DNA of 20,537 nt, taken from the NCBI GenBank assembly GCA_029838195.1, contig JALGVJ010000054.1:1-20537 (forward strand), read 5' to 3'. Position 1 is the stretch's first letter. Each line of letters begins with the position of its first letter. Below the pieces are notes generated by a model, which was not told the DNA's origin, did not search any database, and saw only the letters and a program-made list of their open reading frames with translations. The translations under genes and the position numbers were made by a program. This document shows, in pieces, positions 3,196 through 16,825 of the stretch. This DNA comes from Promethearchaeota archaeon (GTDB lineage Archaea > Asgardarchaeota > Lokiarchaeia > Sigyniarchaeales > SOKP01).

Positions 3196-3903
3196 TTAGG
3201 GAGGATGCGTAAGCGGAGGGAGGCGATACACGGAGCCATATCCTCGTGATACTGCTTTTCCTAACCCAAAATAATTAGGAATTTTAAAGTTAGTTTCGAA
3301 CATACCCGTGAAGCCGGTCATTTTAATGCCCTTAAAAAGGATATTTATAGGGTGTACTTCCAATTCAACGTGAATGGGGGAGGGCACATGGTAATTCAAA
3401 TATTTACACATGGAAAGGATATTCCCGATTAATATTTTTTTTAGGAGATTCCGCCGCATGAGAAGGGAGGCCGACTTATATTTTTGCTTGTTCTTTTCGT
3501 TGAAGGCGAGCCAAGGGGTTAGAAATTTATAACGATATACTTTTTTCGAGGAGATTTTTAACGTGGGCTCGCTATAATGAACTTTTATTTTTACTATGGG
3601 ATAGTCATTATTTCCTAAAGACAATGTTTTCAAATTCAAGATGACATGGCGCAAGATAGAGATGTTTTCTTCTCCGATTGCCAAGATGATGGCGTACTGC
3701 TCATGAACATGGTATTGGATGGAAGGATATCTATAAAATAATGAATGCTGCTTGGAATTCGAGATATGATGATGCAAAGAAGGAAAAGAAGGAAATTGAG
3801 CTCCGATAAAACCTCGCAAGTGAGCCCCATTTTCTTCAATGGGACGATTCGTAAATAAAAAAACATTTAATACCTGTAATTTCATGAGCAATCCTAAAAT
3901 CAT
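3196..3903 (-). CDS. cas6: CRISPR-associated endoribonuclease Cas6 (Cas6b-like)
   Basis: LRGFIG...LHHH...YRYPSIQY N-terminal motifs, FLTPWLAFN, ILIGNILS, C-terminal G-rich loop GLGKAVSRGYG; last gene of the csm operon, start overlapping the csm6 stop. Confidence 0.93.
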   Translation of the reverse strand: MILGLLMKLQVLNVFLFTNRPIEENGAHLRGFIGAQFPSFPSLHHHISNSKQHSLFYRYPSIQYHVHEQYAIILAIGEENISILRHVILNLKTLSLGNNDYPIVKIKVHYSEPTLKISSKKVYRYKFLTPWLAFNEKNKQKYKSASLLMRRNLLKKILIGNILSMCKYLNYHVPSPIHVELEVHPINILFKGIKMTGFTGMFETNFKIPNYFGLGKAVSRGYGSVYRLPPLTHPP

Positions 3904-5387
3904 TAGAGTTTTTTAACGTGTTCTAAAATTAATTCATTAATGATGTCATACACGTTCATGAATGACACGGTTTTTTTGTTCATGAGGAAAGCAAGAAAAA
4001 TAGAAAGGTGGTTTTTTAAAGAGGCAAGCAAATCATTAATGTCTTGTCCGTACAAGGATTCAATGGTTTTTTCTGATACGGGTTCGAAGCCATGGGCGAT
4101 GATGGATTTATTCCTCAATTCTCCCAGGTATGCTGAACCTGAACTGTTCGGATATTTTGTTTCAAGAGTTTCTTTTCCCATCTTTTTATATTCATCGTAT
4201 CGATACTTATTTATTTTATCCAGCAAATCAATGATATTCCATACAGGATAATAGTGATTTCTGTTATTCAGTTGTTTCAATTTTTGAAGGGCAATAAAAA
4301 ACATGAGAGGACGATTGAGTTGCTCGGCGGTCAAATCCAACGGTTTTCCGCGAAGCGTGATAGACTCTAAATCATTCCAAATGGCAGGCTCGTGAGCCTT
4401 TAGATAAGATAAAAAGTTACCATGCTGCTTAACGTCCTCAAGATATTGAACCACGGGAGAGGATTGAAACACGCACTTGAGAATTTCATTTAATAATGCC
4501 TCTTCTAGTCGAAAAAGAAGCGCAATCAGCAAGATGAGGTTTCCTGTTTCATGACAAATTTCGATTTTCCAAAAAAGCTCTTTTATCAGATCCACGTGAT
4601 TAAGAGGTTTTGGAATGTCCAAGACTTTTAATTTATCATGGAACACGTGAGACACTTGCTTTTTATAATTGGTTAACTCAGTGCGTGCTCTTTCAAAATT
4701 GAAATTGTCCCTAGCCCGAGCATGACGCAAAAGGGATAAAAGGGGCTTGCTTCCTTCCAAGTTATCTTCGCTTAATAAGGCAATGAGGGAAGAATAATTG
4801 TATCCTTTTAATAATTCTAAGCAAGTATTTTTTAAAAAGACCTTGCGAATGGTAAGCTCGTGATTGACGGGATTTAGTGTCCCTTGATCCACGTTATAAA
4901 ATTCTATGTTTTTAGGATATAATAAACTCAAAATGATGTATAAAGCGGCATTCATTTGAGGCGTGCCGCCCGAAAGCGAGATGATCTTAATGCCTTCTTG
5001 ATTTAAAATGCTATTTTTTTGCGTGAAATAATCCGTAAAAAAACGGAAAATCCGTTCATGATCCGTGGGATTATTAGGATATTCTACCACGTTCACTCGC
5101 ACGTGGGGATGGTTTTTTTCAATAATTTTTTTCAAAATGCCGGCAACATGGAGCGTGTCGGAATTATTATAGCGGGTATCTTCTTGGTTGGTCGCAAATA
5201 AATACACGTGATTCAATTCTTTTCCGAATTCTCGAAAATACGGCTCGAGGATGGGATAACTCAAGCTAGCCTCTTCCTTATTAAAATTATTAAGAATTTC
5301 AAGGCTTGCCTGGCGAAGGTTATTCCGATTTAACAAGGATCCATTTTTTTGCACGTCCCTATTGCCGACATTTGCTATTAAGATCAT
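3903..5387 (-). CDS. csm6: CARF + HEPN cOA-activated RNase, Csm6/TIGR02710-like
   Basis: N-terminal CARF-type motifs (ILIANVGNRD, YLFATNQ, SLSGGTPQM) and C-terminal HEPN motif LRNKSIIAHG; lies between csm5 and cas6. Exact subfamily uncertain. Confidence 0.8.
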   Translation of the reverse strand: MILIANVGNRDVQKNGSLLNRNNLRQASLEILNNFNKEEASLSYPILEPYFREFGKELNHVYLFATNQEDTRYNNSDTLHVAGILKKIIEKNHPHVRVNVVEYPNNPTDHERIFRFFTDYFTQKNSILNQEGIKIISLSGGTPQMNAALYIILSLLYPKNIEFYNVDQGTLNPVNHELTIRKVFLKNTCLELLKGYNYSSLIALLSEDNLEGSKPLLSLLRHARARDNFNFERARTELTNYKKQVSHVFHDKLKVLDIPKPLNHVDLIKELFWKIEICHETGNLILLIALLFRLEEALLNEILKCVFQSSPVVQYLEDVKQHGNFLSYLKAHEPAIWNDLESITLRGKPLDLTAEQLNRPLMFFIALQKLKQLNNRNHYYPVWNIIDLLDKINKYRYDEYKKMGKETLETKYPNSSGSAYLGELRNKSIIAHGFEPVSEKTIESLYGQDINDLLASLKNHLSIFLAFLMNKKTVSFMNVYDIINELILEHVKKL

Positions 5388-5457
5388 GATGCCCCCCCTT
5401 ATATTATTATTATTATTTTCATCATTAACATCGTTATCTTTATTAATAATATACTCA

Positions 5458-6789
5458 TCAATTCCATGTTAATTTTATCCATCCGAAAGGAAATGTGGCT
5501 TTATCATCAATCATTACAAATTTCCGGGTCAAGGGAAAAATCATGTCCGACATGTTAAATTGGGGTTGTATTCTTTCTATTAAAAACACGCGTATGTATT
5601 TCTTTTTTCTGTCTATACTGCCGATTCTACAGAGCCATTGTTCATTTTTCGATTGAGGCTTAGGGGAATTCCTGTCTATATAAATATTATATCCTTTATC
5701 CCTTGTAAAATATTGCCCTTGTTTATTTATTCTATCGAATCTAAAGATTTTCCAATTTTTTACGTCAAGAGAATCGGGATAATTCAAGAGCACGGTAATG
5801 CCGAGGATGCTGGAGCCTTGTCCCAAGCGGATAATGGCCTCGTTTGAATTTAAAGTATTAATTTTTTGACGGAGTTCTTCGTAATAGGAAATAATAGGGG
5901 TTAAATTTGCATCATTTTGCTTTTTAAACAAGGATAATTCGTAAGTAATGAGTTCTTTAGAAAACTCGTTTAAAGTTGAAATGATATTCTCTTTTTGAAG
6001 GTTGAATTTACTCGTTTCTAAGATATTAGAATCAATTAATTTAGTATTGATTTTTATAGCTCCTTTTGATATAAACCCTTTTTTCAGCATTTCATAAAAC
6101 ATGGGGATGGTAAATTGCTTATTTTTTAAATGATAAACCTTGGATTCCATTATTTGAAGACACGTTTTACAATTCATTACAGTCAAATCAGATATTGAAA
6201 GGGCCCGTAATAAATCCGTTTTAGCATTCTTGCGATTTTTTCCATTCTTGCGAATTAGATTTTGCACGTGGCGGTCATTCATGGCCCCATAAGATCTATT
6301 CACTAAATCATCGAGAATACGTTTGGAGTCATGTTGATGGGATTTTAACACGTCAAAAAGGATAGCAGTTCGTAAGGCACCCTTGAGACTCGAGCCGGGG
6401 ATGTACGGTCGATCGCACGAGGTAATGAACTGATGGATTTCATTTTTTCCGATTGATCCAACCAAATCAAGGCTTTTTTTAATAGCTTCCTTCCAATTCA
6501 TTTGATAATGATCAAGAAATTCTTGTACATCCTTATTCCAAATATTATTTTGAAAATTCTCATTAATATCATTGGTAAGGTCGTCAATAAATTCGATAGG
6601 AACGCCGGATAATAGCTTTTCAAAATTAATGATGTGAATTTTATTGCCTTCCGGAATGTAATCCAGCTGAGAGTATTTTTTGCCCGACCCGATGAATAAG
6701 GGAGATAACCCTTCCATGAGTATTTCATGCGATTTAAATAATTCCTCATTGTTTTCTTTTTCCATTCCAATCTTCTCCATTTTTTTCAT
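5458..6789 (-). CDS. csm5: Type III-A RAMP protein Csm5
   Basis: LSPLFIGSG, PYIPGSSLKGALRTA, DLLRALSISD, RLGQGS, FPLTRK, PFGWIKL motifs; follows csm4. Confidence 0.92.
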   Translation of the reverse strand: MKKMEKIGMEKENNEELFKSHEILMEGLSPLFIGSGKKYSQLDYIPEGNKIHIINFEKLLSGVPIEFIDDLTNDINENFQNNIWNKDVQEFLDHYQMNWKEAIKKSLDLVGSIGKNEIHQFITSCDRPYIPGSSLKGALRTAILFDVLKSHQHDSKRILDDLVNRSYGAMNDRHVQNLIRKNGKNRKNAKTDLLRALSISDLTVMNCKTCLQIMESKVYHLKNKQFTIPMFYEMLKKGFISKGAIKINTKLIDSNILETSKFNLQKENIISTLNEFSKELITYELSLFKKQNDANLTPIISYYEELRQKINTLNSNEAIIRLGQGSSILGITVLLNYPDSLDVKNWKIFRFDRINKQGQYFTRDKGYNIYIDRNSPKPQSKNEQWLCRIGSIDRKKKYIRVFLIERIQPQFNMSDMIFPLTRKFVMIDDKATFPFGWIKLTWN

Positions 6790-6790
6790 T

Positions 6791-8014
6791 TTAAATCTCT
6801 CCTTCCTCCGCTTGATTGGGACCGATATTCATGTAAAATCCAATGCCATTTTTATATACTTCATGATGAGTCCGTGCGAATTCTTTGGAAGCAACTTGTA
6901 CCAATTTTCCTTTTATTTTTCCTGTAAAAACAGAACCCTCTTTAATGAATTTTACATCCAAAAATCTCTGGGTCTTACTATCAAGGGAGTAACAATAGCC
7001 CGTGCGGTCTAATAAGGAATAAAATTTAACGTGTTTCATGTCAATTTTGGGTGTTGCGGGATATACTAAAGAAAGGTTCATGAATTCTCTATGATTAGAT
7101 TCCTCTCCATTCGAAAATAAATCATTTAAATTAGGTTCCTTCTCTAAGGGTTCGATCACGACATCATCGAATAAGCCCGCACCCAAGCTCCTTTCTCCTC
7201 CGATTCCGTTGTCAGTTAGCAATTTAATGGCAGCTTTGAGAATGGAAACATGGGCTTCCTTTAGTCCTGAAGGATCTAGCAAGAAGTAGAATCCGGGAAC
7301 TAATTCATGAATCAATCTTGCATCTTCAGAACGAATAAAATAATTAGAACGAGTTAGATATAATTTTGATCTCGTGAAGGGTTCGGATTTAGCCTCCGAA
7401 ATATTAAAACCACATCTCTTGATGCGTACTCGTTGCTCTTCTACTTGGCGTAGTAATTTTATTTTCTCTTTAATTGCAATGAATTCCGTATCATGTTCAT
7501 GAGGTATTTTTTTTTGAACCCACTTTTTCCATCCCAAGATCTCCAAGTCTTTATCGTCCAATAAATGGGAATCGTCGAGTAAATAAAATGCATTGAACGA
7601 AAGCGGTTCTCCCTTTTGAAGTTTCCTTGCGGTATTGGATGAGAGGTATTCCACTTTCTTGAATAGTTTAGGATTTCCTTCCAAATAACTTTGTGCCTCT
7701 TCCGTGAACGTAAATCGCTTTAACGGAGCAGGCAAAAAAAATAAGGAAGATAGCTGTTTTTGGTCCTTATAAATGTCAATGTAATGAAAACAAGAACTTA
7801 GCTTGAACCATCCATCTCCCGTCTTTAAGCTATCCTGCACGGCGGCCAAAAATTCTTTTAGAACCTCTTTTCCCTCTAAAAGGCGAATGTTATTACAGAG
7901 GGCACTGAATAACGTATCGCTGTGAATGAGGGTGCTTAAATTGCCCGCATGATCCTCTCCAATGCTGTAATAGTTTCGAGTCTTAGATATTAATTTTATT
8001 AAATACATCCTCAA
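6791..8014 (-). CDS. csm4: Type III-A RAMP protein Csm4 (Cas5 group)
   Basis: IHSDTLFSAL, LSSCF, FFLPAP, GIGGERSLGAGLF, EGSVF motifs. Start is at 8014 or 8008; either overlaps the csm3 3' end. Confidence 0.93.
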   Translation of the reverse strand: MRMYLIKLISKTRNYYSIGEDHAGNLSTLIHSDTLFSALCNNIRLLEGKEVLKEFLAAVQDSLKTGDGWFKLSSCFHYIDIYKDQKQLSSLFFLPAPLKRFTFTEEAQSYLEGNPKLFKKVEYLSSNTARKLQKGEPLSFNAFYLLDDSHLLDDKDLEILGWKKWVQKKIPHEHDTEFIAIKEKIKLLRQVEEQRVRIKRCGFNISEAKSEPFTRSKLYLTRSNYFIRSEDARLIHELVPGFYFLLDPSGLKEAHVSILKAAIKLLTDNGIGGERSLGAGLFDDVVIEPLEKEPNLNDLFSNGEESNHREFMNLSLVYPATPKIDMKHVKFYSLLDRTGYCYSLDSKTQRFLDVKFIKEGSVFTGKIKGKLVQVASKEFARTHHEVYKNGIGFYMNIGPNQAEEGEI

Positions 8015-8807
8015 ACCATTGGATATTATTTATATCACGTACATTAAATGAAGTATCCGTCAATGCAATTTCAGCTTGCGAGGATTTATAAAATTCCACG
8101 GGACGATAATTAAGCTTGATATTTTCAAAACTAACTTTTCCGCTCCCGCGCGTTCCGCTTGCTCCCAAGTAATCATCTTCCAGTAGTTTTAAACCCGTGA
8201 ATAGCGTTTTTAAGAGCTCCTTGTCTTCCCCAGAATAAAGATCTAAAATGATCTCAAATCGAAATTGAACTCCTGGAGGTACCCGTTCCAGATGGCGAGG
8301 ATTAGCTTTTGCAGTAATTCTATCGATTGCATTTTCAATTTTATCTTCCGTGTATTCTAACTCGAGATTCTTAAATAACTCGTGTTTATTTTTTTCAAAA
8401 TGTTCTACATCCAGCCATGCATCCCGAAAAATTCCTCTTTCGGGTTCGTTAACATCAGGATCTCCAAAAATTTTCGTGATGTCATCAATTTTCTCTATTA
8501 TAACCTTGTCATTTTCTTTTTTAATAAATCTGTGAATGACCATTTTTTCATCAAAGTATCCTTTCCCATCGCTATCATACTCATTTCTTAATGGATATTT
8601 TGACGTCTCCAAGAGACTTCTCATCTTTCCCTTGAGGGAGCTTCCGGGGATATAAGGCACGCCTTTAGCATCCCGAATCACCGGAGAATCAATTCCGCCT
8701 ATATTTAGGGCGGTTTTGCTTCCTCCAATTGCCAAACCCGTTCTTACTACGATATTTCCCGTTATTAAAACTTTTCCTTTTAATTGTAGATCATTCGTCA
8801 TGTTCAT
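7983..8807 (-). CDS. csm3: Type III-A backbone RNase Csm3 (Cas7 group)
   Basis: TGLAIGG...IGGIDSPVIRD (catalytic Asp present), PYIPGSSLKGKMRSLLE, ENAIDR, ANPRHLERVP, YLGASGTRGSG. Confidence 0.97.
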   Translation of the reverse strand: MNMTNDLQLKGKVLITGNIVVRTGLAIGGSKTALNIGGIDSPVIRDAKGVPYIPGSSLKGKMRSLLETSKYPLRNEYDSDGKGYFDEKMVIHRFIKKENDKVIIEKIDDITKIFGDPDVNEPERGIFRDAWLDVEHFEKNKHELFKNLELEYTEDKIENAIDRITAKANPRHLERVPPGVQFRFEIILDLYSGEDKELLKTLFTGLKLLEDDYLGASGTRGSGKVSFENIKLNYRPVEFYKSSQAEIALTDTSFNVRDINNIQWFEDVFNKINI

Positions 8808-9169
8808 TCTTTTCCTCCATATGATCTGTGATAGGCTAATATAGCTTCAAAAAAATCCTTAAAAGCGATTAACATGTCGTCATTTTGTATATTTTTTATC
8901 AAAGCATCTAATACTTTTACTAAAGGTGTTAATTCCTTAAATCTTCCTTTTTGATACGCCAGTTTTGGACGTAATAAATGAAGATTCGTTTTTGCTTCAT
9001 TATAGTCATCCGGTAACGTTTTTACTACCTGAAAAATGCCTCGAATTTGAGATGTGGAAATCTTTTTATCGCTGGCACAGAATCTTCCAAATTCTTCGCT
9101 CAATGTTATGAATTGCTCAATGTTTTCCTTTTTCAGAATGGATTCTGCCTTATTTATTATTTTATTCAC
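8804..9169 (-). CDS. csm2: Type III-A small subunit Csm2 (Cas11)
   Basis: STSQIRGIF, LLRPKLAYQKGR, FFEAILAYH motifs; ATGA overlap with csm3; GTG start. Confidence 0.95.
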   Translation of the reverse strand: MNKIINKAESILKKENIEQFITLSEEFGRFCASDKKISTSQIRGIFQVVKTLPDDYNEAKTNLHLLRPKLAYQKGRFKELTPLVKVLDALIKNIQNDDMLIAFKDFFEAILAYHRSYGGKE

Positions 9170-9249
9170 TAATTGATTTTCATTTTCTTGTTTCTTTTTT
9201 TTTTTTCCTCTATTTTTACTTTTATTAAAGTTCTTACCTTGGTAAATGG

Positions 9250-11946
9250 TTAATCACTCTCATTTTCAGTCTTTTTTCTTGTTAAATAATCAGCCCATTG
9301 AATGGCAACTGATATAAAATTAATATTTTTAATACGTGAACGAGAAGATTGTTTAAATAAATTATTCTTAATGATAATTTCAAACATTTTTAGAATGAAA
9401 TTACTCAACAATCGCGTGTCCGAGTCCTTGGAATTTAATTCGGCTCTTAAAAAATAACGCAATCGCCAGAGTTTAGGGACCCGCACGCTTCCCTTTAATG
9501 ATTCATGGAGCAGTTCTTTCATGCGTAAGGAGGTGAGCTTTAATTTATGGAGCAAGGATTTTGAAATTTTTTTATTATTAATTAAATAAATTAGAATATC
9601 TTTTAGAAGGAAGGATAATTCAAACTCAGATTTATCATCTAGTAATTCTAAGAGCCTTGAGGTCTGTTCTTGCTCGCTTTCTAAATTCATGATCTCCAAC
9701 ACTTTTTCTACGTGGTATTTCAAGCATTTTTCCTCGTCATCAATTACCGACTGATATTCCTCTTCTTTTTTCAAGGACCAATCCCACGTCAAGACCGAGC
9801 CGAATAATGCTATTTTATTTTTAGTATTTTTATTTGGCGTGAAGATTTCATGGTGTTTCGCAGCATCCAATTGCTCTTCTGCTAAGGCTGAGGCTTTCAT
9901 GATTGGAAATTTCGGGTCCTCGATGACAATGCCCGCACTCATGGTAACGTTGGAATTAAATGCCGTGAATCTTCTAAAATCCCTGTATACATGCCACGCA
10001 AACAAGATTAGCTCATCCCAAGCTCCCAGAGCAAAAAGATCGTCTCCTCCCGAATAAATGATGTAAACGCTTTCTTTATAACGTTCTTGAAGCTTGGAAA
10101 TGTATCCCTTAAAGAATAAATTCAAGGAGGTACTCAAGGTAGAGATCCGAGAAAATGAGGCATTTTCTCCGAGTCCTTTTTGCACGATCAATCCTAAAAA
10201 ATCAACATCCATTTTTAGAATGCCGAGTTTCCCGTAGCCCGTTCTTTTTTCCGCCCCTCTTGCCAACTCATCATTATTATAAATGGAATTATCATTTTTT
10301 AACGGAAATCCCGTGGAATATAAAACATGTCCTAAAGTATTTACATTCCCGGGTTCGTTGATAGAATACCAAGTTTTAATATCGTTAATATTTAAATTAT
10401 TCAAATTATTCTCAAAAACCACTGCCAATTGGAGTTCATTAAAGAGTCTGTTATAGCTCCGAGGGCTATTCGTGATTTTCTTAATCAAACATGCTCCTTT
10501 CAAATCATTCGTGAGGTCGATAAACCCCTTACAATGCTCGCAAATCAATTCTTCGCGCGCAAGATCCGAAGGATCAATGAGTTGTAAGGCCGGATAAGAA
10601 TTACATATAATGCAGCGCTCTTCTAATTGCAAATCATTCTCATTCGGTCCAAAAATCTCTTTAAATTTCTCATTAAGATTACCGTCATCCGAAAAAATAA
10701 TGTCCTTAAACCTTTGTCGTTTCCTGAAATTCGTTTTTTCAGAAACCCGTTTCCAAGGGTTAAATTTTTGATAAAAAATTATATTTTCTAAAGTTAAAGG
10801 AACATGTGCCACCGCTAAATAAAGATTCGCATTAAATTCTTTTAAAAAGAATTCGTTTATTACTTTGACTTTCTCGCTGAGATATGACTCAAGCTGCTCA
10901 AAATAATGTGTTATTAAATAAAAATGCCCGCCTCCGGCAAATATGATGTTCGCCTTCGTTAGCTTGAGTTCTCTCACCAAATATTCAGCGACAAGTTCAG
11001 TCATTAGACTAAAATAAAAAGACCTTCCCTTAAGCGTCTTGCTTGCATACTTTGAAGTAATAAGATGAATGAATCGCTGAATGCCGGAAAAATCACCGTG
11101 CACCAATGCAAAAAGCTTTCGTGATTTAAACAACTTTTCTTTATCGGATCCTTTAATCTCATCTAAATAATGCGTTCCTTCATGATACAACTTTTCAAAT
11201 AAAACTCCAATATCATTTAAGAAAGTAACTTTATCGTCTTCATTAAAATACCTTTTCTCAAGATATTCATTAATAGCGGCAGAAAACGCACATGCCACCT
11301 TTAAATGATCAAATAAACTTATATCAGGCTCCACTTCATAGGCAGCCGAAGGAACAAGTTTGAGATGCGTGAATAATAAAGAATAAAGAAATTCAAACTT
11401 TAATTCAAAATCATCATCACCATTATCATACCTTTCAATAGCCGCAAGCTTTTCTTGAAATTTATTCCAATTTTGCTTGAAATTTTCTTTTATTTCTTTT
11501 TGAACCTTGCTTAGCGTATTGGGAAAAATTTCAGGGCAATCCCCTTCCATCTCTAACGCTTTCCCCAAATGATAAAATTCTTTTACTTGTCTTGAAGGTG
11601 TATTAATAACATCATGGTCAAATATTTTTATTTTTGAAAAAATAGAAGTAAGTCCCACTTTCGATATTTCTCCTCTATCTTCTGATGTTATCCGCTCAGA
11701 AGACGCTAGCCAATCCGAAAGAACCAGTATTTTCAACGGTAAATACCCTTCCTTTTGAAAAAGATTCTTAATTTCCTTCAGGTGATGCAAGTTCACTAAC
11801 GAGGATATTTCCGATGAGAAAGCTTTCTGGTTCTCAATTAATCTACCACCAATCTCGGAATGCGAGCCCCTTTCACCCGCCCGATATCCCAATTTCCCTA
11901 TATCATGAGTCAGTGAAGAAAATAGTGATTTGTCTTTCTCGTTCAT
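9250..11946 (-). CDS. cas10: Type III-A Cas10/Csm1 with intact HD nuclease and Palm cyclase motifs
   Basis: HDIGK (HD), GDFSGIQRFI, LKGRSF, GGGHF, CxxC...CxxC zinc site, KMDVDFLG, YSGGDD. Confidence 0.97.
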   Translation of the reverse strand: MNEKDKSLFSSLTHDIGKLGYRAGERGSHSEIGGRLIENQKAFSSEISSLVNLHHLKEIKNLFQKEGYLPLKILVLSDWLASSERITSEDRGEISKVGLTSIFSKIKIFDHDVINTPSRQVKEFYHLGKALEMEGDCPEIFPNTLSKVQKEIKENFKQNWNKFQEKLAAIERYDNGDDDFELKFEFLYSLLFTHLKLVPSAAYEVEPDISLFDHLKVACAFSAAINEYLEKRYFNEDDKVTFLNDIGVLFEKLYHEGTHYLDEIKGSDKEKLFKSRKLFALVHGDFSGIQRFIHLITSKYASKTLKGRSFYFSLMTELVAEYLVRELKLTKANIIFAGGGHFYLITHYFEQLESYLSEKVKVINEFFLKEFNANLYLAVAHVPLTLENIIFYQKFNPWKRVSEKTNFRKRQRFKDIIFSDDGNLNEKFKEIFGPNENDLQLEERCIICNSYPALQLIDPSDLAREELICEHCKGFIDLTNDLKGACLIKKITNSPRSYNRLFNELQLAVVFENNLNNLNINDIKTWYSINEPGNVNTLGHVLYSTGFPLKNDNSIYNNDELARGAEKRTGYGKLGILKMDVDFLGLIVQKGLGENASFSRISTLSTSLNLFFKGYISKLQERYKESVYIIYSGGDDLFALGAWDELILFAWHVYRDFRRFTAFNSNVTMSAGIVIEDPKFPIMKASALAEEQLDAAKHHEIFTPNKNTKNKIALFGSVLTWDWSLKKEEEYQSVIDDEEKCLKYHVEKVLEIMNLESEQEQTSRLLELLDDKSEFELSFLLKDILIYLINNKKISKSLLHKLKLTSLRMKELLHESLKGSVRVPKLWRLRYFLRAELNSKDSDTRLLSNFILKMFEIIIKNNLFKQSSRSRIKNINFISVAIQWADYLTRKKTENESD

Positions 11947-12006
11947 TTTTGAAAATATTATTAGATTAAACCAAGATCTGTATGATTAATTTGTACCATT
12001 CCATAT

Positions 12007-12020
12007 TATTTAAATTTTTG
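12007..12020 (-). promoter_or_regulatory. Candidate BRE/TATA box for the cas10 operon
   Basis: Minus strand reads CAAAAA-TTTAAATA about 60 bp upstream of the cas10 ATG, the same TTTAAATA box as in the CRISPR leaders. AT-rich context weakens the call. Confidence 0.35.
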
Positions 12021-12084
12021 TGTTTCAATTTCCTTTTCTATTTACTTTAGTTTTTATAAATCAAATTTAAACTATTTAAAGAAA

Positions 12085-12128
12085 GTCGAGCATCTTCCCC
12101 TGCCTATTTATAAAAAAAAAGAAGCCGA
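12085..12128 (-). promoter_or_regulatory. Inverted, diverged copy of the leader dyad motif upstream of cas10
   Basis: Minus strand reads TCGGCTTC-N29-GCTCGAC versus TCGAGCTTC-N29-GCTCGAC in leaders 1 and 4; 12085-12097 is the exact reverse complement of 15799-15811. Confidence 0.55.
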
Positions 12129-12263
12129 AAAAAATTTTCAAATTAGCATCGTGCTTGAACAAATTGTTTAAAATTAAAGGCAAATTAATCGAGCGATCTT
12201 TCATTAAATCACTATTTTAACTCCCTTGGGGCGCTCCCGGTAAAATTCAAAAATGGGTAATCC

Positions 12264-12596
12264 TACTTCTTTATTTTCGGTTATATTACCTTTCTTTCAT
12301 GAGGAAAACTCACGGGCGCTATTTTCCCGGAACCAATTTTTGTCGAGCTTCCTTTATTAATAATTAGCATGAAAAGAAATGCTCGACAGATCCGTTAAAA
12401 ATAAAAATTTAACAAGATTGGTCAGTGTCACGTTTACTTTATGAAAATTAATGTTTCTTCAAAGAAATTAAAAATAAAAAACGGAAAGCACAAGTTCGAG
12501 GATATCTTTTCCCAAAAGCCAAAAATTAACTTTAATCGTTATGATTGCAATTTCCGTGCATTTAAATAAGATTCCTTCTTCTCCTATTTTATAAGG
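12264..12596 (+). promoter_or_regulatory. CRISPR leader 1 (full length)
   Basis: AT-rich, abuts the first repeat, aligns over ~333 bp with 15688-16021. Contains dyad GTCGAGC (12342-12348)/GCTCGAC (12381-12387) and TATA-like TTTAAATA (12561-12568). Confidence 0.88.
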
Positions 12597-14604
12597 GTAG
12601 CATCTGATAAGCCATCATAACAAGGATTGCGACAATGTAAGAATCATTGAATGCATTATTATACGTGTTGTAGCATCTGATAAGCCATCATAACAAGGAT
12701 TGCGACCTCCAAGAGTTTTCCAAACCCGTCGGTCTGGAAGGCTTGTAGCATCTGATAAGCCATCATAACAAGGATTGCGACGTAGAGAATCCAATGTCTG
12801 GTTCATTAGTATTTTATCTGTAGCATCTGATAAGCCATCATAACAAGGATTGCGACAGATCCAAAAAAGCCGAGTAGAAGCCGTCTACTCCCCAAATTTT
12901 TAGTAGCATCTGATAAGCCATCATAACAAGGATTGCGACAACACATCACCAAAAAGATATACTTTTTCCTTACTTCCCGTAGCATCTGATAAGCCATCAT
13001 AACAAGGATTGCGACCTTAGCCTCTCTGCAAGCTCCCAGAGTTGTGTAAGGGAATTATAAGTAGCATCTGATAAGCCATCATAACAAGGATTGCGACAAT
13101 CCATTGCATAACTTTTTTAGAAAACTCGGAATCGATTCAAGTAGCATCTGATAAGCCATCATAACAAGGATTGCGACTAATTCCGCACGGGGACATTCTT
13201 TACAAGCCGATATGGTAGCATCTGATAAGCCATCATAACAAGGATTGCGACCATGATAAGGAAGAGGAAGTAAATCATTCAATAAAAAAGTAGCATCTGA
13301 TAAGCCATCATAACAAGGATTGCGACATGAACCTATCAAACTTTTCCGTAATATCAGGGAGGCGTAGCATCTGATAAGCCATCATAACAAGGATTGCGAC
13401 GAAAAGAGCATGGTATCGGTCTCATTGCAATTCCCTTTTGTAGCATCTGATAAGCCATCATAACAAGGATTGCGACACCTGCGAGATGAACGGTTGAGTG
13501 ACGGCGATCCTGCTGTAGCATCTGATAAGCCATCATAACAAGGATTGCGACTCTCGAGCGGTTGATGGAGAACGGGTTCGTGGACAAGTGTAGCATCTGA
13601 TAAGCCATCATAACAAGGATTGCGACATTACAATTAAGAGTATTACTACTCCCGCAATTATTAATGGTAGCATCTGATAAGCCATCATAACAAGGATTGC
13701 GACTTTATTCTAAATTTTACTTTCATAAAAAATACATCACCGTAGCATCTGATAAGCCATCATAACAAGGATTGCGACTTTAATAAATATGGATATTGTT
13801 CCTCACTCCTTCTGGTAGCATCTGATAAGCCATCATAACAAGGATTGCGACTTAGCTCTTTCTCGGGATGATTCTCGGGAGGCACGTTCTGTAGCATCTG
13901 ATAAGCCATCATAACAAGGATTGCGACTCTTGCTCCTCGACTGGAATCGGGCAACGGATAAATTCCGTAGCATCTGATAAGCCATCATAACAAGGATTGC
14001 GACAAAAGAAAAAGAAAAAAAACTTTTTATTAATTTTTAGTTTGTAGCATCTGATAAGCCATCATAACAAGGATTGCGATAACCACAGATCATATGTCTT
14101 TTCTTGGTCCACTACATGTAGCATCTGATAGGCCATCATAACAAGGATTGCGACAGTCTCTCATAACCGATATGGGAATGTTCACATAATTGTAGCATCT
14201 GATAGGCCATCATAACAAGGATTGCGATAATGCAATTCTCGCATGAACGTTGTAGCTTGCACTCCAGGGTAGCATCTGATAGGCCATTATAACAAGGATT
14301 GCGAATTGTTTAGCTGTTTAGTTTTCGTGCTGTTTTTTATTTTGTAACATCTGATATGCCATCATAACAAGGATTGCGACTCCCAGATCTCCAATAACTC
14401 TCGTAAATACCCATCCATTGTAGCATCTAATATGCCATTATAACAAGGATTGCGACGTGGTAAACCTGGCCGTCAGGCGGGTAACGTTTCGGATGTAGTA
14501 TTTGAAATGCCATTATAACAAGGATTGCGACCATCGAGGACACTCGTAGATGGACATGTATTCATTGCTCCAGTAGTATTTGAAATGCCATCATAACAAG
14601 GATT
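12597..14604 (+). CRISPR. CRISPR sub-array 1: 27 repeats, 26 spacers (36-46 nt)
   Basis: Repeat GTAGCATCTGATAAGCCATCATAACAAGGATTGCGAC; first 19 identical, then increasingly variant; last repeat cut after 32 nt. Orientation from leader position, distal decay and the ATTGCGAC 3' octamer (type III 5'-tag). Confidence 0.98.
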
Positions 14605-14740
14605 TCCTTCAAAGAAATTAAAAAGCGAAAAGTACAAGTTCGAGGATATCTTTTCCCAAAAGCCAAAAATTAACTTTAATCGTCATGATTGCAATATCCG
14701 TGCATTTAAATAAGATTCCTTCTTCTCCTATTTTATAAGG
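14605..14740 (+). promoter_or_regulatory. CRISPR leader 2 (truncated, 136 bp)
   Basis: Matches the proximal part of leader 1 (...GTGCATTTAAATAAGATTCCTTCTTCTCCTATTTTATAAGG) and lacks the distal dyad. Confidence 0.88.
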
Positions 14741-15301
14741 GTAGCATCTGATAGGCCATCATAACAAGGATTGCGACGCCAGATGAGGAAGTAATCAAAA
14801 ATTCTGGATCACAACCGATGTAGCATCTGATAGGCCATCATAACAAGGATTGCGACTATACTAGCTTTTCGATAATTTTTAAATGATTCGTAAAAGTAGC
14901 ATCTGATAGGCCATCATAACAAGGATTGCGACGTTGCGTAGCTGCTTGCTGCCAAGTCCACCTACTCGTGTAGCATCTGATAGGCCATTATAATAAGGAT
15001 TGCGATAATGGTCATTCCACCGGGAGTGCAACCGGAGCACCACCGTAGCATCTGATAGGCCATTGTAATAAGGATTGCGATAGTATATCGGAGTAGAAAC
15101 TCGGAGTATGGATCATAATGTAGCATCTGATAGGCCATTATAATAAGGATTGCGATTTCGAGCTGGAAGACCCCCTTGGGGCTAATGGCTTGAGTAGCAT
15201 CTGATAGGCCATTATAACAAGGATTGCGATCTATATTTGTTATATATGTAATCTGCCATACGATCGATTGTAGCATCTGATAGGCCATCATAACAAGGAT
15301 T
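14741..15301 (+). CRISPR. CRISPR sub-array 2: 8 repeats, 7 spacers
   Basis: GATAGGCC repeat variant; last repeat (15270-15301) cut after 32 nt. Confidence 0.96.
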
Positions 15302-15443
15302 TCATTAAAGGAAATTAAAAATAAAAAGCGAAAAGCACGAGTTCGAGGATAATTTTTCCAAAAAGCCAAAAATTAACTTTAATCGTCATGATTACAGTTT
15401 CCGTGCATTTAAATAAGATTCCTTCTTCTCTTATTTTATAAGG
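15302..15443 (+). promoter_or_regulatory. CRISPR leader 3 (truncated, 142 bp)
   Basis: Same proximal leader segment and same left junction as leader 2. Confidence 0.88.
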
Positions 15444-15631
15444 GTAGCATCTGATAAGCCATCATAACAAGGATTGCAATTTTGCATCTTGACCAGCAAT
15501 TGACGCATTAAGCCAAAAGTAGCATCTGATAGGTCATCATAACAAGGATTGCGATTAAAACCTGCATTCTCCAATGTCTCGTTTTCCCAAAAAGGTAGCA
15601 TCTGATAGGCCATCATAACAAGGATTATTAC
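15444..15631 (+). CRISPR. CRISPR sub-array 3: 3 repeats, 2 spacers
   Basis: Repeats at 15444, 15519 and 15595; the last ends in degenerate GGATTATTAC. Confidence 0.93.
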
Positions 15632-15687
15632 GGGGAGATAATTCAAATAACGGAACGCTAATTGATAATCATACAGATCTGAATTGA

Positions 15688-16021
15688 TACTCCTTTATTT
15701 GAAGGTTTGTTACTTTTCTTTCATAAAGACAACTCTCGGGCGCCATTTTCCCGGAACCAATTTTTGTCGAGCTTCCTTTATTAGAAATGAATTCAAATGA
15801 AGATGCTCGACGGATCGGTTAAAAATAAAAATTTAACAAAATTGGTCAGTGTCCCGTTTACTTCCCGGAAATTAATGTTTCCTTCAAAGAAATTAAAAAT
15901 AAAAAGCGAAAAGTACAAGTTCGAGATAAACTTTTCCAAAAAGCCAAAAGTTAATTTTAATCGTCATAATTGCAATATCCGTGCATTTAAATAAGATTCC
16001 TTCTTCTCCTATTTTATAAGG
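15688..16021 (+). promoter_or_regulatory. CRISPR leader 4 (full length)
   Basis: Colinear with leader 1; dyad arms at 15766-15772 and 15805-15811; TTTAAATA at 15986-15993. Confidence 0.88.
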
Positions 16022-16816
16022 GTAGGAATGATAGGCCATAATAACAAGGATTGCGACGCATTCAGAAAATGCAAAAGGGTACCGGCCACGTATTCCGTAG
16101 CATCTGATTGGCCATTATAACAAGGATTGCGACTATGGCACTGTATCGTTATCCGCATCCCCACTGATATCATAGTATTTGAAATGCCATTATAACAAGG
16201 ATTGCGATCCATTTTGGAGGAAGTCAAGCAAGAAGGCATCCACTTTGTAGCATCTGATAGGCCATCATAACAAGGATTGCGACAAACAAGAATGGGACTT
16301 CAAGGGAACTTAACCTCCGTCCCATTTGTAGCATCTGATATGCCATCATAACAAGGATTGCGACACCAGGCTATAGACAATCATAAAGATCACTACGGCG
16401 ATTTAGCATCTGATATGCCATCATAACAAGGATTGCGACACCAGGCTATAGACAATCATGAAGATCACTACGGCGATTTAGCATCTGATAGGCCATTATA
16501 ATAAGGATTGCGACGGAAAATCAAGGAAAAGTCTCCTAACTCTCCGCATTAGAGTAGCATCTGATAGGCCATTATAACAAGGATTGCGACTTTCCTTTCC
16601 CACACCAAAGGCAAATCATTTCATTTTTGTAGCATCTGATAGGCCATTATAATAAGGATTGCGACTACACCATCTGTTTTACATTAGGTTTATTCCTTTC
16701 AGGCGTAGCATCTGATAGGCCATAATAATAAGGATTGCGATAAGCCAAACTCATGCGAACCACATTCGCATGAGATTATGTAGCATCTGATAGGCCATTA
16801 TAACAAGGATTACGAC
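16022..16816 (+). CRISPR. CRISPR sub-array 4: 11 repeats, 10 spacers
   Basis: Heterogeneous repeats; first is mutated (GTAGGAATGATAGG..., 36 nt); one spacer tandemly duplicated; last repeat ends GATTACGAC. Confidence 0.96.
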
Positions 16817-16817
16817 A

Positions 16818-16825
16818 TTTTTTTT
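16818..16825 (+). terminator. Oligo-T tract, candidate archaeal terminator of the pre-crRNA
   Basis: T-run immediately after the final repeat. Confidence 0.4.

Follow-up and report, generated by a model that had tools for sequence, protein, structure and literature searches.

Within the window analysed here, the 20,537-nt contig JALGVJ010000054.1 of a Promethearchaeota archaeon (assembly GCA_029838195.1), a CRISPR locus of 49 repeats of 37 nt each occupies positions 12597-16816 of the + strand and is divided into four head-to-tail blocks of 27, 8, 3 and 11 repeats, each preceded by its own copy of one leader (Table 1). We think it probable that this arrangement arose from tandem arrays and one illegitimate recombination that was later copied, that the promoter modules of the leader copies remain under selection, and that the whole is a single, recombination-built and non-mobile locus serving a type III-A system. 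CRISPR leaders do two jobs, starting transcription and marking the entry point of spacers, and to our knowledge the division of this labour is poorly known in archaeal arrays of type I-B and in those linked to type III.

A four-block array beside a type III-A operon

The array is adjacent to, and divergent from, an operon of type III-A effector genes that includes a cas6b gene. Neither cas1 nor cas2 was found in the 20.5-kb contig, and three cas1 genes lie elsewhere in the genome (contigs C29, C74 and C48). On C74, a csm6-cas1-cas2 cluster accompanies an array whose repeat has the same 3′ end, GGATTGCGAC, as the repeat of our locus, and the Cas1-Cas2 pair of this contig is presumably the best candidate integrase. 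TBP genes are present in the genome, and archaeal promoter rules therefore apply.

The repeats enclose 45 spacers of 36-46 nt, lack a stable fold (z = 0.3) and end in the 8-nt tag ATTGCGAC, of the ATTGAAAC type; in related arrays next to homologous cas10 genes, the repeat end is ATTGAAAC or ATTGAAAT. Comparison of all four blocks revealed no spacer common to more than one of them, the sole duplicate being a tandem spacer-repeat unit within block 4 (spacers 16365-16402 and 16440-16477, one mismatch). Six T5-T6 runs occur in the sense strand of block 1. Archaeal transcription terminates at oligo-T, and the run of eight T that directly follows the last repeat is likely the terminator of the locus.

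Table 1 Coordinates of the leaders, repeat blocks and neighbouring genes within the window
Feature	Position	Strand	Description
Type III-A effector operon	3196-11946	-	Pfam and NCBIfam matches; divergent from array
cas6b	3196-3903	-	Cas6b N- and C-terminal domains, E 3e-18 and 1e-39
csm6-like (CARF/HEPN)	3903-5387	-	Pfam/NCBIfam
csm5	5458-6789	-	Pfam/NCBIfam
csm4	6791-8014	-	Pfam/NCBIfam
csm3	7983-8807	-	Pfam/NCBIfam
csm2	8804-9169	-	Pfam/NCBIfam
cas10/csm1	9250-11946	-	TIGR02578 Cas10/Csm1, E 1e-151
Leader 1 (L1)	11947-12596	+	Complete modular leader, up to cas10 start at 11946
L1 box A	~12064-12096	+	Double TATA-like element + TCGAGC
L1 box B	12186-12209	+	Also present in other leaders
L1 dyad	12336-12386	+	Arms GTCGAGC and GCTCGAC
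L1 proximal module	12456-12596	+	TTTAAATA at 12561-12568; leader end ...TATAAGG
Block 1	12597-14604	+	27 repeats, 26 spacers
Leader 2 (L2)	14605-14740	+	136-nt copy, proximal module only; TTTAAATA at 14705-14712
Block 2	14741-15301	+	8 repeats, all G14; 7 spacers
Leader 3 (L3)	15302-15443	+	142-nt copy, proximal module only; TTTAAATA at 15408-15415
Block 3	15444-15631	+	3 repeats, 2 spacers
Leader 4 (L4)	15632-16021	+	Long copy; clear homology to L1 from 15688; TTTAAATA at 15986-15993
Block 4	16022-16816	+	11 repeats, 10 spacers; G14 and T14 variants mixed
Run of eight T	16818-16825	+	Directly after last repeat

Four unequal copies of one leader

A BLAST search of the whole 4.5-Mb genome with L1 retrieved three more copies, all on the same contig and strand, at 15688-16021 (87% over 335 nt, E 1e-110), 14604-14740 (92%, E 4e-53) and 15300-15443 (91%, E 6e-51), a similarity that is far beyond chance. 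The four leaders are alike at 89-96% over 136-142 nt, and the homology of L1 with L4 spans the full 335 nt at 87%; L2 matches the corresponding stretch of L1 at 95.6% and has a 6-nt deletion, while L3 is 89-91% identical to the other copies. The TATA-like box TTTAAATA begins exactly 36 nt before the first repeat in every block (starts at 12561, 14705, 15408 and 15986), and a TATA-like box 30-50 nt upstream together with a leader end in ...AAGG recurs beside homologous cas10 genes and in other leaders of the family. A preliminary description of this DNA had reported four same-strand leader copies, each with its own non-shared spacers and with the box at this distance, and the BLAST search, repeat map and spacer comparison bear it out. 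Its statement that one leader occurs four times holds for the number of copies but not for their extent, since two are long and two are partial (136-142 nt), and L1 does not begin at 12264, as given there, but reaches upstream to the start of cas10 at 11946.

The distal boxes of L1 align with the leaders of the contig C48 arrays of the same genome and with those of two relatives (G103 and G117), and TCGAG occurs five times in L1, with 0.77 expected. L4 is without boxes A and B and has its dyad at 15760-15810. Within the locus the dyad is restricted to L1 and L4, and its absence from L2 and L3 agrees with the preliminary description; so does the finding that only block 1 combines a dyad with a canonical first repeat, given that the dyad-bearing L4 adjoins a decayed one. 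A search of 135 family genomes with the dyad pattern gave 11 matches in seven genomes (none with the reversed pattern as control), of which ten lie upstream of arrays, and in 9 of the 11 family leaders the distance from dyad to first repeat is 210-214 nt, a fixed spacing as expected of a distal integration-helper site of IHF or HU type. Judged by this distribution of sequence matches, the dyad genuinely belongs to the CRISPR leaders of this archaeal family, and its conservation at a fixed distance makes its absence from L2 and L3 meaningful.

Junctions between repeats and leaders

The last repeats of block 1 (14573-14604) and block 2 (15270-15301) are both cut after position 32, and L2 and L3 are fused to them at the identical point, leader position -141; at L2 the fusion reads ...AAGGATT/TCCTTCAAAG. 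These junctions display TT microhomology only, and their identity suggests a single accidental recombination of which copies were made afterwards. Since, in addition, no relative searched has the architecture, the term "segmented super-array", in the sense of an evolved design, goes beyond the evidence. In block 3 the terminal repeat also diverges after position 32 (ATTAC replaces GCGAC) and is joined to its leader at another point, which hints at a hotspot and possibly at recurrent events.

Between the truncated repeat of block 1 and that of block 2 there are four differences, for which a later recombination is needed as explanation, and a single origin of the junction requires the later loss of every duplicated spacer. 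Insertion of a MITE or IS element was considered and rejected: a BLAST search of the 4.5-Mb genome places the 141-nt module at the four leaders of this contig and nowhere else, and the junction has nothing beyond the TT microhomology.

The locus comprises two tandem arrays, A (blocks 1-3) and B (block 4), each of which is headed by a long modular leader. We propose that one illegitimate recombination fused a repeat with the leader at position -141, that the junction was then copied by unequal recombination between repeats, and that later repeat-repeat deletions dropped those spacers that had been duplicated and gave the truncated repeats a 5′ part of another type. Published work has documented both the duplication of spacer-repeat segments and their recombination, inside one locus as well as between loci (PMC4390879). 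Junctions may have survived where they fell within the last few nucleotides of a repeat: whatever Cas6b would need of the repeat for completing the crRNA upstream is still there, and the portion that supplies the 8-nt tag would be dispensable where no spacer follows.

Constraint on the repeat-proximal 44 nt

When the four leader copies were aligned, the last 44 nt, including TTTAAATA, contained one variable site and the ~93-98 columns upstream 22 changes (Fisher P ~0.001, a test that with four copies has little power to tell which of them is constrained). Block 4 has no change in the 44 leader nt versus four in the adjoining 37-nt repeat (P = 0.04), and the identity of L4 with L1 is a mosaic of 98% at -44 to -1, 96% at -289 to -240 (left dyad arm) and 65% in the dyad loop. 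Because these 44 nt are intact in L4 beside a decayed first repeat, their conservation is explained neither by gene conversion extending out of the repeat nor by selection for integration at block 4. The best reading of the alignment is that the promoter modules of the leader copies are still under selection. The conserved stretch also includes the leader-repeat junction, which is what integration needs in other systems (PMC4330368), and the constraint on L2 and L3 could thus be for integration and not for transcription. The suggestion in the preliminary description that internal leaders act as promoters gains only indirect support from the near-invariance of the 44 nt, although the same nucleotides could equally serve integration.

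Under our preferred reading, each block would have its own promoter of the TBP/TFB type, with TTTAAATA at -36 to -29 and a transcription start expected ~5 nt before each first repeat, and the transcripts would be cut by Cas6b 8 nt from each repeat end. With a promoter per block, the old spacers of blocks 2-4 would be transcribed without ~2 kb of read-through across six oligo-T runs. In a long array, interference falls with distance from the leader (bioRxiv 10.64898/2026.07.09.737519).

The internal leaders could alternatively be neutral scars of recombination, the downstream blocks being expressed, if at all, by read-through from L1. We hold this account to be unlikely, yet several observations speak for it. 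Neither the repeat nor the architecture was found among the 135 family genomes, 40 close relatives and collection scans, and a same-genus genome is without this repeat and leader, a distribution that gives no sign of the maintenance of the architecture over time. Blocks 2-4 are, moreover, made of decaying repeats, and in Leptospira interrogans serovar Lai seven neighbouring arrays yield one precursor from a single leader (PMC9372919). Neutral scars would nevertheless leave unexplained why the last 44 nt are nearly invariant in four copies whose remainder has diverged by 10-15%, and the conservation beside the decayed first repeat of block 4 argues against gene conversion from the repeats. The T5-T6 runs of block 1 would also make full archaeal read-through doubtful.

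Uptake history of the blocks

In block 1, repeats 1-19 are identical and carry A at position 14 (A14), repeat 20 has a single change (C37T), repeats 21-23 are of the G14 and repeats 24-27 of the T14 type. The chronology of this block runs from T14 through G14 to A14, and T14 is the state closest to that of related repeats in relatives. Only block 1 has a long run of identical repeats, as the preliminary description had noted, and this run is of the newest variant; blocks 2-4 contain heterogeneous older variants only. Block 2 begins with a repeat of the older G14 type that is identical to the two that follow, the first repeat of block 3 is non-canonical, with two changes within the last 3 nt, and that of block 4 (16022-16057) has 36 nt and is decayed at positions 5-8 and 19, which confirms the damage reported earlier. 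No repeat in blocks 3 and 4 copies the present first repeat of its own block. The best reading of these repeat types is that spacers were recently gained at the front block only, and the earlier suggestion that only the front block acquires agrees with this chronology for recent time. New spacers would recently have entered at L1 only, via Cas1-Cas2 encoded elsewhere.

These patterns bear on the possibility that the blocks represent parallel integration points, in which the partial leaders are or were full sites and each block grew from a seed of leader plus one repeat. Grissa et al. read the lack of shared spacers as growth from such units (PMC1892036), acquisition in S. thermophilus can be induced at an internal repeat by placing a short leader element next to it (PMC4330368), L2 has preserved the leader-repeat junction with its 44 flanking nt completely and L3 almost so, and block 2 opens with three identical repeats. 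We nonetheless consider parallel integration improbable: blocks 2-4 are without a run of young repeats, the repeats of block 2 are all of a type that also lies deep in block 1, the first repeats of blocks 3 and 4 have no copies in their own blocks, the latter being damaged, and L2 and L3 are without the dyad that most family leaders keep at its fixed distance.

That an assembler stitched array versions of co-occurring strains into one contig is very improbable: although the assembly has 94 contigs and an estimated contamination of 7.9%, and CRISPR arrays are strain-variable and repeat-rich, the junctions of truncated repeat and leader -141 share 2 nt of homology, so that a k-mer assembler could not have created them without spanning reads, the leader copies differ by 4-11% plus an indel (L2 and L3, at 9% and a 6-nt indel, are not assembly echoes), the contig continues into unique sequence on either side of the locus, and the repeat is on no other contig of the genome.

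Relation to known systems

Many leader-plus-array units occur in Methanocaldococcus jannaschii. The locus is real, and its kind has precedents: in 2007, Grissa, Vergnaud and Pourcel described clustered CRISPRs whose leaders are paralogous, including seven CRISPRs within 25 kb in Clostridium tetani, with leaders 80% similar and no shared spacers (PMC1892036). Our four units resemble these in having the same repeat, on one strand and close together, leaders that align over ~150 bp at 80-95%, and no spacer in common. Unlike separate loci that each have a complete leader, they include two partial leaders (L2 and L3) and one without boxes A and B (L4), abut directly with no trailer, have two proximal-only leaders fused inside a repeat at the identical point, and differ in the leader modules kept.

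In S. thermophilus CRISPR1, the leader works in modules and acts locally, at its junction with the repeat, and an engineered leader segment beside an internal repeat, as in our locus, induced acquisition at that internal site (Wei, Chesne, Terns and Terns 2015, PMC4330368). That case is artificial, bacterial and of type II-A, whereas the present locus is natural, archaeal and type III-linked, and its repeats bear no sign of recent internal acquisition. Cryptic TATA-box promoters inside arrays of Sulfolobales could likewise start transcription mid-array (PMC10883916, PMC3315313), but they arise by chance in AT-rich spacers, face both directions and are repressed by Cbp1-Cren7, while the candidate promoters here duplicate that of the leader, all face in the sense direction and are kept intact in sequence. 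Leptospira interrogans serovar Lai also has one locus split into short arrays, by segments of 112-158 nt; those segments are reported to differ from the leader, and the arrays to be transcribed as one precursor (PMC9372919), whereas ours are leader copies. Finally, some leaders depend on host factors, namely on IHF in E. coli type I-E, with an anchoring site further upstream, and on HU in Thermotoga profunda type III-A (PMC13769266). The dyad of our locus resembles such elements in its fixed distance of ~210 nt, roughly 20 helical turns, and differs from them in its archaeal host.

Implications for the family and its type III-linked arrays

The locus presents four natural leader versions, namely a complete one (L1), two proximal-only ones (L2 and L3) and a long one with dyad and a broken first repeat (L4), which together with the family-wide distal element could be used directly as constructs when transcription and integration are assayed in vitro. 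The practical value of the locus is nevertheless limited, its host being an uncultivated Asgard-type archaeon and its structure being shared by no relative.

A further reading, which we offer tentatively and rate as rather unlikely, is that family leaders consist of two parts, a dyad ~210 nt (20 helical turns) from the repeat that licenses integration and a 141-nt proximal module that is only a promoter. The locus would then be a natural separation-of-function series, in which the full leader L1 acquires and transcribes, the promoter-only copies keep archived type III spacers expressed, and L4, full-length but followed by a dead first repeat, is left with transcription. Reiterated promoter-only leaders would be a recurrent, selected escape that lets type III-linked arrays avoid the fall of crRNA with leader distance. 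If the internal copies are inactive, the locus is still a clear record of array rearrangement by recombination inside repeats, and if they are active promoters, they would offer one simple way to keep old immune memories expressed in a long array.

Organization of the CRISPR locus

The four-block CRISPR feature, which is both real and well defined, contains 49 copies of a 37-nt repeat (GTAGCATCTGATAAGCCATCATAACAAGGATTGCGAC) between 12597 and 16816, with spacers of 36–46 nt, arranged in blocks 1–4 of 27, 8, 3 and 11 repeats that follow the leader copies L1–L4, respectively. The preliminary description had placed four copies of one leader on the same strand, and a BLAST search of the whole genome with L1 retrieved exactly three more (E 6e-51 to 1e-110), all on this contig and in the same orientation, and none outside it. 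The copies are present but not equal: L1 is complete and L4 long, whereas L2 and L3 comprise only the final 136 and 142 nt. The TATA-like box TTTAAATA begins exactly 36 nt ahead of the first repeat in all four blocks, and no spacers are shared among blocks, both as previously stated; the sole duplicate is a tandem one within block 4 (spacers 16365–16402 and 16440–16477, one A/G difference), where both repeats flanking the duplicated unit begin with T instead of G. We regard the + strand as the transcribed one because an AT-rich leader lies upstream, the repeats decay with distance from the leader, the repeat end ATTGCGAC is a version of the ATTGAAAC tag, and a run of eight T comes after the last repeat. 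The arrays adjoining the two closest cas10 homologues have repeats ending in ATTGAAAC or ATTGAAAT.

The window is an entire contig (20,537 bp) of a 4.5 Mb assembly in 94 contigs (33% G+C, completeness 96.6%, estimated contamination 7.9%). The CRISPR locus begins 650 nt upstream of cas10, in the opposite orientation, and no Rfam family matched anywhere in the window. Neither cas1 nor cas2 was found on the contig, and the three cas1 genes of the genome all lie on other contigs. One of these, C74, carries a csm6-cas1-cas2-array unit that marks a second type III locus of the genome, with a 37-nt repeat whose 3′ end (GGATTGCGAC) matches that of the window repeat; this unit is the best candidate for an adaptation module acting in trans on the window array. 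Exact matches for four spacer cores were absent from IMG/VR, and no convincing protospacers were found in the family genomes or the organism's own genome.

Coordinates of the CRISPR locus features and of related elements (window positions unless a contig or locus is named)
Feature	Position	Strand	Remarks
Type III-A effector operon, complete	3196–11946	-	cas10, csm2, csm3, csm4, csm5, csm6-like CARF/HEPN gene, cas6b
L1, complete leader	11947–12596	+	distal part with box A, box B and dyad
Box A of L1	about 12064–12096
Box B of L1	12186–12209
Dyad of L1	12336–12386		arms GTCGAGC and GCTCGAC, about 31 nt between
L2, partial leader	14605–14740	+	corresponds to L1 12456–12596
L3, partial leader	15302–15443	+	corresponds to L1 12456–12596
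L4, long leader	15632–16021	+	dyad 15760–15810 kept; boxes A and B absent
First repeats of blocks 1–4	12597, 14741, 15444, 16022
TCGAG/CTCGA sites, L1	12086, 12189, 12343, 12382, 12496
TCGAG/CTCGA sites, L2 and L3	14640; 15343
TCGAG/CTCGA sites, L4	15767, 15806, 15921
Dyad sites elsewhere	G000:C48 5631–5681, about 44800–44847; loci L040–L048		G000, the window's own genome
C74 unit, small contig	L002 190–2778; C74 3958–4691		csm6, cas1, cas2; array

Constraint on the leader copies

Variation among the leader copies is unevenly distributed. Across the four, 28 of 142 columns are variable, and the last 44 nt hold one of these (position -13, counted from the first repeat, in L3); with a 6-nt indel counted once, this amounts to 1/44 variable columns vs 22/93 upstream (P = 0.001). 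Between L1 and L4, identity is 98% from -44 to -1, 77% from -57 to -45 and 83% from -99 to -58, while it reaches 96% in the left dyad arm with its flank and 65% in the dyad loop. In block 4 the 44 leader nucleotides are unchanged and the adjoining first repeat differs at four points, one of them a deletion (P = 0.04). An intact stretch beside a decayed repeat argues against homogenisation by conversion tracts starting in repeats, as well as against selection for integration at L4, and the pattern fits a promoter maintained by selection.

The TTTAAATA box agrees with the archaeal TATA consensus, and the usual archaeal TATA spacing would put the start ~5 nt ahead of the first repeat. Without intron handling, 15 tRNAs were detected in the genome, too few for their upstream regions to inform a TATA consensus. 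Related leaders in the family likewise have a recurrent TATA-like box 30–50 nt upstream and a leader end ...AAGG. The host genome encodes TBP, which within the control set was restricted to archaea and is the evidence for archaeal identity, a 16S rRNA gene being absent from the assembly. Overall, the sequences provide good, though indirect, evidence for continued maintenance of the promoter portion in all leader copies.

Distal leader elements

The palindromic dyad is, from its distribution, a real leader element held at a fixed distance, and it is absent from L2 and L3. Among 135 family genomes, seven contain its pattern, with 11 sites in all and at least four genera of the archaeal family represented (reversed control pattern: 0). 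All but one of the 11 sites have a CRISPR array downstream on the same strand, the arrays belonging to several repeat families. In 9 of 11 leaders, 210–214 nt separate the dyad from the first repeat (210 and 211 nt in L1 and L4, 213 and 212 nt in two leaders on contig C48 of the same genome, and 213, 211, 211, 211 and 214 nt in five leaders of relatives), with exceptions at 168 and 75 nt. This spacing suggests a phase-locked protein site, and since the arms show no covariation, a protein site on DNA is likelier than an RNA hairpin. Integration and regulation are both candidate roles; if the former, the dyad would parallel the IHF and HU systems, in which a host factor steers integration to the leader-proximal end (PMC13769266). 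TCGAG is found five times in L1 against about 0.8 expected (0.77; P = 0.001), the C48 leaders are similarly enriched, and one TCGAG/CTCGA is retained at -101 in each of L2 and L3; these may be several sites for one leader-binding protein.

The distal boxes of L1 align with the leaders of two C48 arrays, which belong to another repeat family, and with leaders adjoining the cas10 homologues of the relatives G103 and G117. In box A, which lies in the stretch separating cas10 from the array and ~500 nt ahead of the first repeat, a double TATA-like element precedes TTTCGAGCATC; box A is also conserved in the C48, G103 (L019) and G117 (L020) leaders, and could be a second, distal leader promoter or the cas10 promoter. 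A repeat-like relic in the long leader (TAACAAG-ATTG near 12410) was discarded as not significant, 70% of shuffles equalling its score.

Origin of the internal leaders

The locus is best seen as made by recombination and as belonging to the known class of multiplied CRISPR arrays. At the L2 and L3 junctions the breakpoint is identical: the repeat ends after position 32 (...AAGGATT) and continues into TC(C/A)TT(C/A)AAG, with only TT as crossover homology between repeat and leader. This identity points to a single illegitimate recombination event, with leader position -141 and a repeat as partners, the junction of which would then have been copied by unequal repeat-repeat recombination. Block 3 likewise ends in a repeat that leaves the consensus beyond position 32, although there the adjoining sequence is the distal end of L4. 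Between blocks 1 and 2, the truncated repeats show four differences in their 5′ part, each resembling its own neighbours, as expected from later repeat-repeat deletions, and the same deletions would also have removed duplicated spacers. Presumably only breakpoints in the last few nucleotides of the repeat survive, because the part that Cas6b needs for finishing the upstream crRNA would stay whole; such breaks would be tolerated because the 8-nt tag is useless without a following spacer. The leader copies are 89–96% alike, with shared variants in mosaic, so that the duplications are old relative to spacer turnover.

In Sulfolobales, spacer-repeat segments are documented to duplicate and recombine within and between loci (PMC4390879), and groups of neighbouring CRISPRs that have paralogous leaders but no spacers in common were described in 2007 (PMC1892036). 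Searches of the open full-text literature found no paper describing truncated repeats joined to partial copies of a leader. A mobile element carrying the leader was ruled out, because the module has no copy in the genome beyond the four leader positions.

History of spacer acquisition

Repeat position 14 provides a time series in block 1, with T in repeats 24–27 (the state nearest to the repeats of relatives), G in 21–23 and A in 1–20, and repeats 1–19 are identical. As each new repeat duplicates the leader-proximal one, a logic also applied in PMC1892036, block 1 recently gained ~19 spacers. Block 2 has G14 throughout, with extra changes from the fourth repeat onward; in block 3 every repeat is different from the others; and block 4 mixes G14 and T14, none of its repeats being a copy of its damaged first repeat. 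The earlier proposal that only the front block acquires is thus supported for recent time, uptake being visible at L1 alone, and these repeat variants are good indirect evidence for it.

Spacers may nevertheless have been taken up at the internal leaders too at an earlier time, and Grissa et al. attributed this kind of pattern, with no spacers in common among blocks, to growth from inserted leader-plus-repeat seeds. In S. thermophilus, an engineered leader element adjoining an internal repeat redirects acquisition (PMC4330368).

Comparison with relatives

The same architecture, which the preliminary description had suggested seeking in relatives, was not found in any other genome or contig searched, nor were the repeat and the leader, and there is no evidence from these sequences that the four-block arrangement is conserved among them. 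A cas10-based scan of the genome-contig collection did not recover the window repeat or leader copies, nor did an exact 30-nt leader core match there, and the repeat core identified only one distantly related array in metagenome contigs, with a different leader. Only low-complexity matches came from comparing the leader DNA with 40 relatives and the entire array with 135 family genomes. Synteny with a same-genus genome was limited to an MFS gene at 55–58% identity, the array being absent. Neither the arrays that neighbour the two closest cas10 homologues (G103 and G117, 50% identity) nor the 118-repeat array of C48 had internal leaders.

The latter array (C48 5895–14739, 8.8 kb) has a single leader and belongs to another repeat family (GTCGCAAAGGAACAAGCTTCAAATAGAAGATTGAAAC), the last repeat base shifting from C to T along its length. 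The two cas10 homologues (G103:C14:67295–69922 and G117:C16:8083–10698) each contain one in-frame TAA, which could mean a mini-intron or a broken gene. In G103 (L019, G103:C14) a transposase-like ORF region separates cas10 from the leader (about 10720–12040, locus coordinates), and the array includes a repeat cut after ...AAGGA and followed by an 18-nt stub (about 9430–9470, locus coordinates), a break falling in the same repeat part as the window junctions.

Possible implications for guide supply

The sense strand of block 1 contains six T5–T6 runs, and in archaea runs of this type can halt transcription. One spacer of this block (14004–14043), a low-complexity sequence that is A-rich and then has two T5 runs, yields spurious matches in many genomes and might serve as an internal terminator. 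In a long bacterial array, interference weakened sharply the farther a spacer lay from the leader (bioRxiv 10.64898/2026.07.09.737519), and chance internal promoters are known, in repressed form, from Sulfolobales arrays (PMC10883916). If active, the internal promoters of the window locus would replenish the 19 older guides encoded by blocks 2–4.
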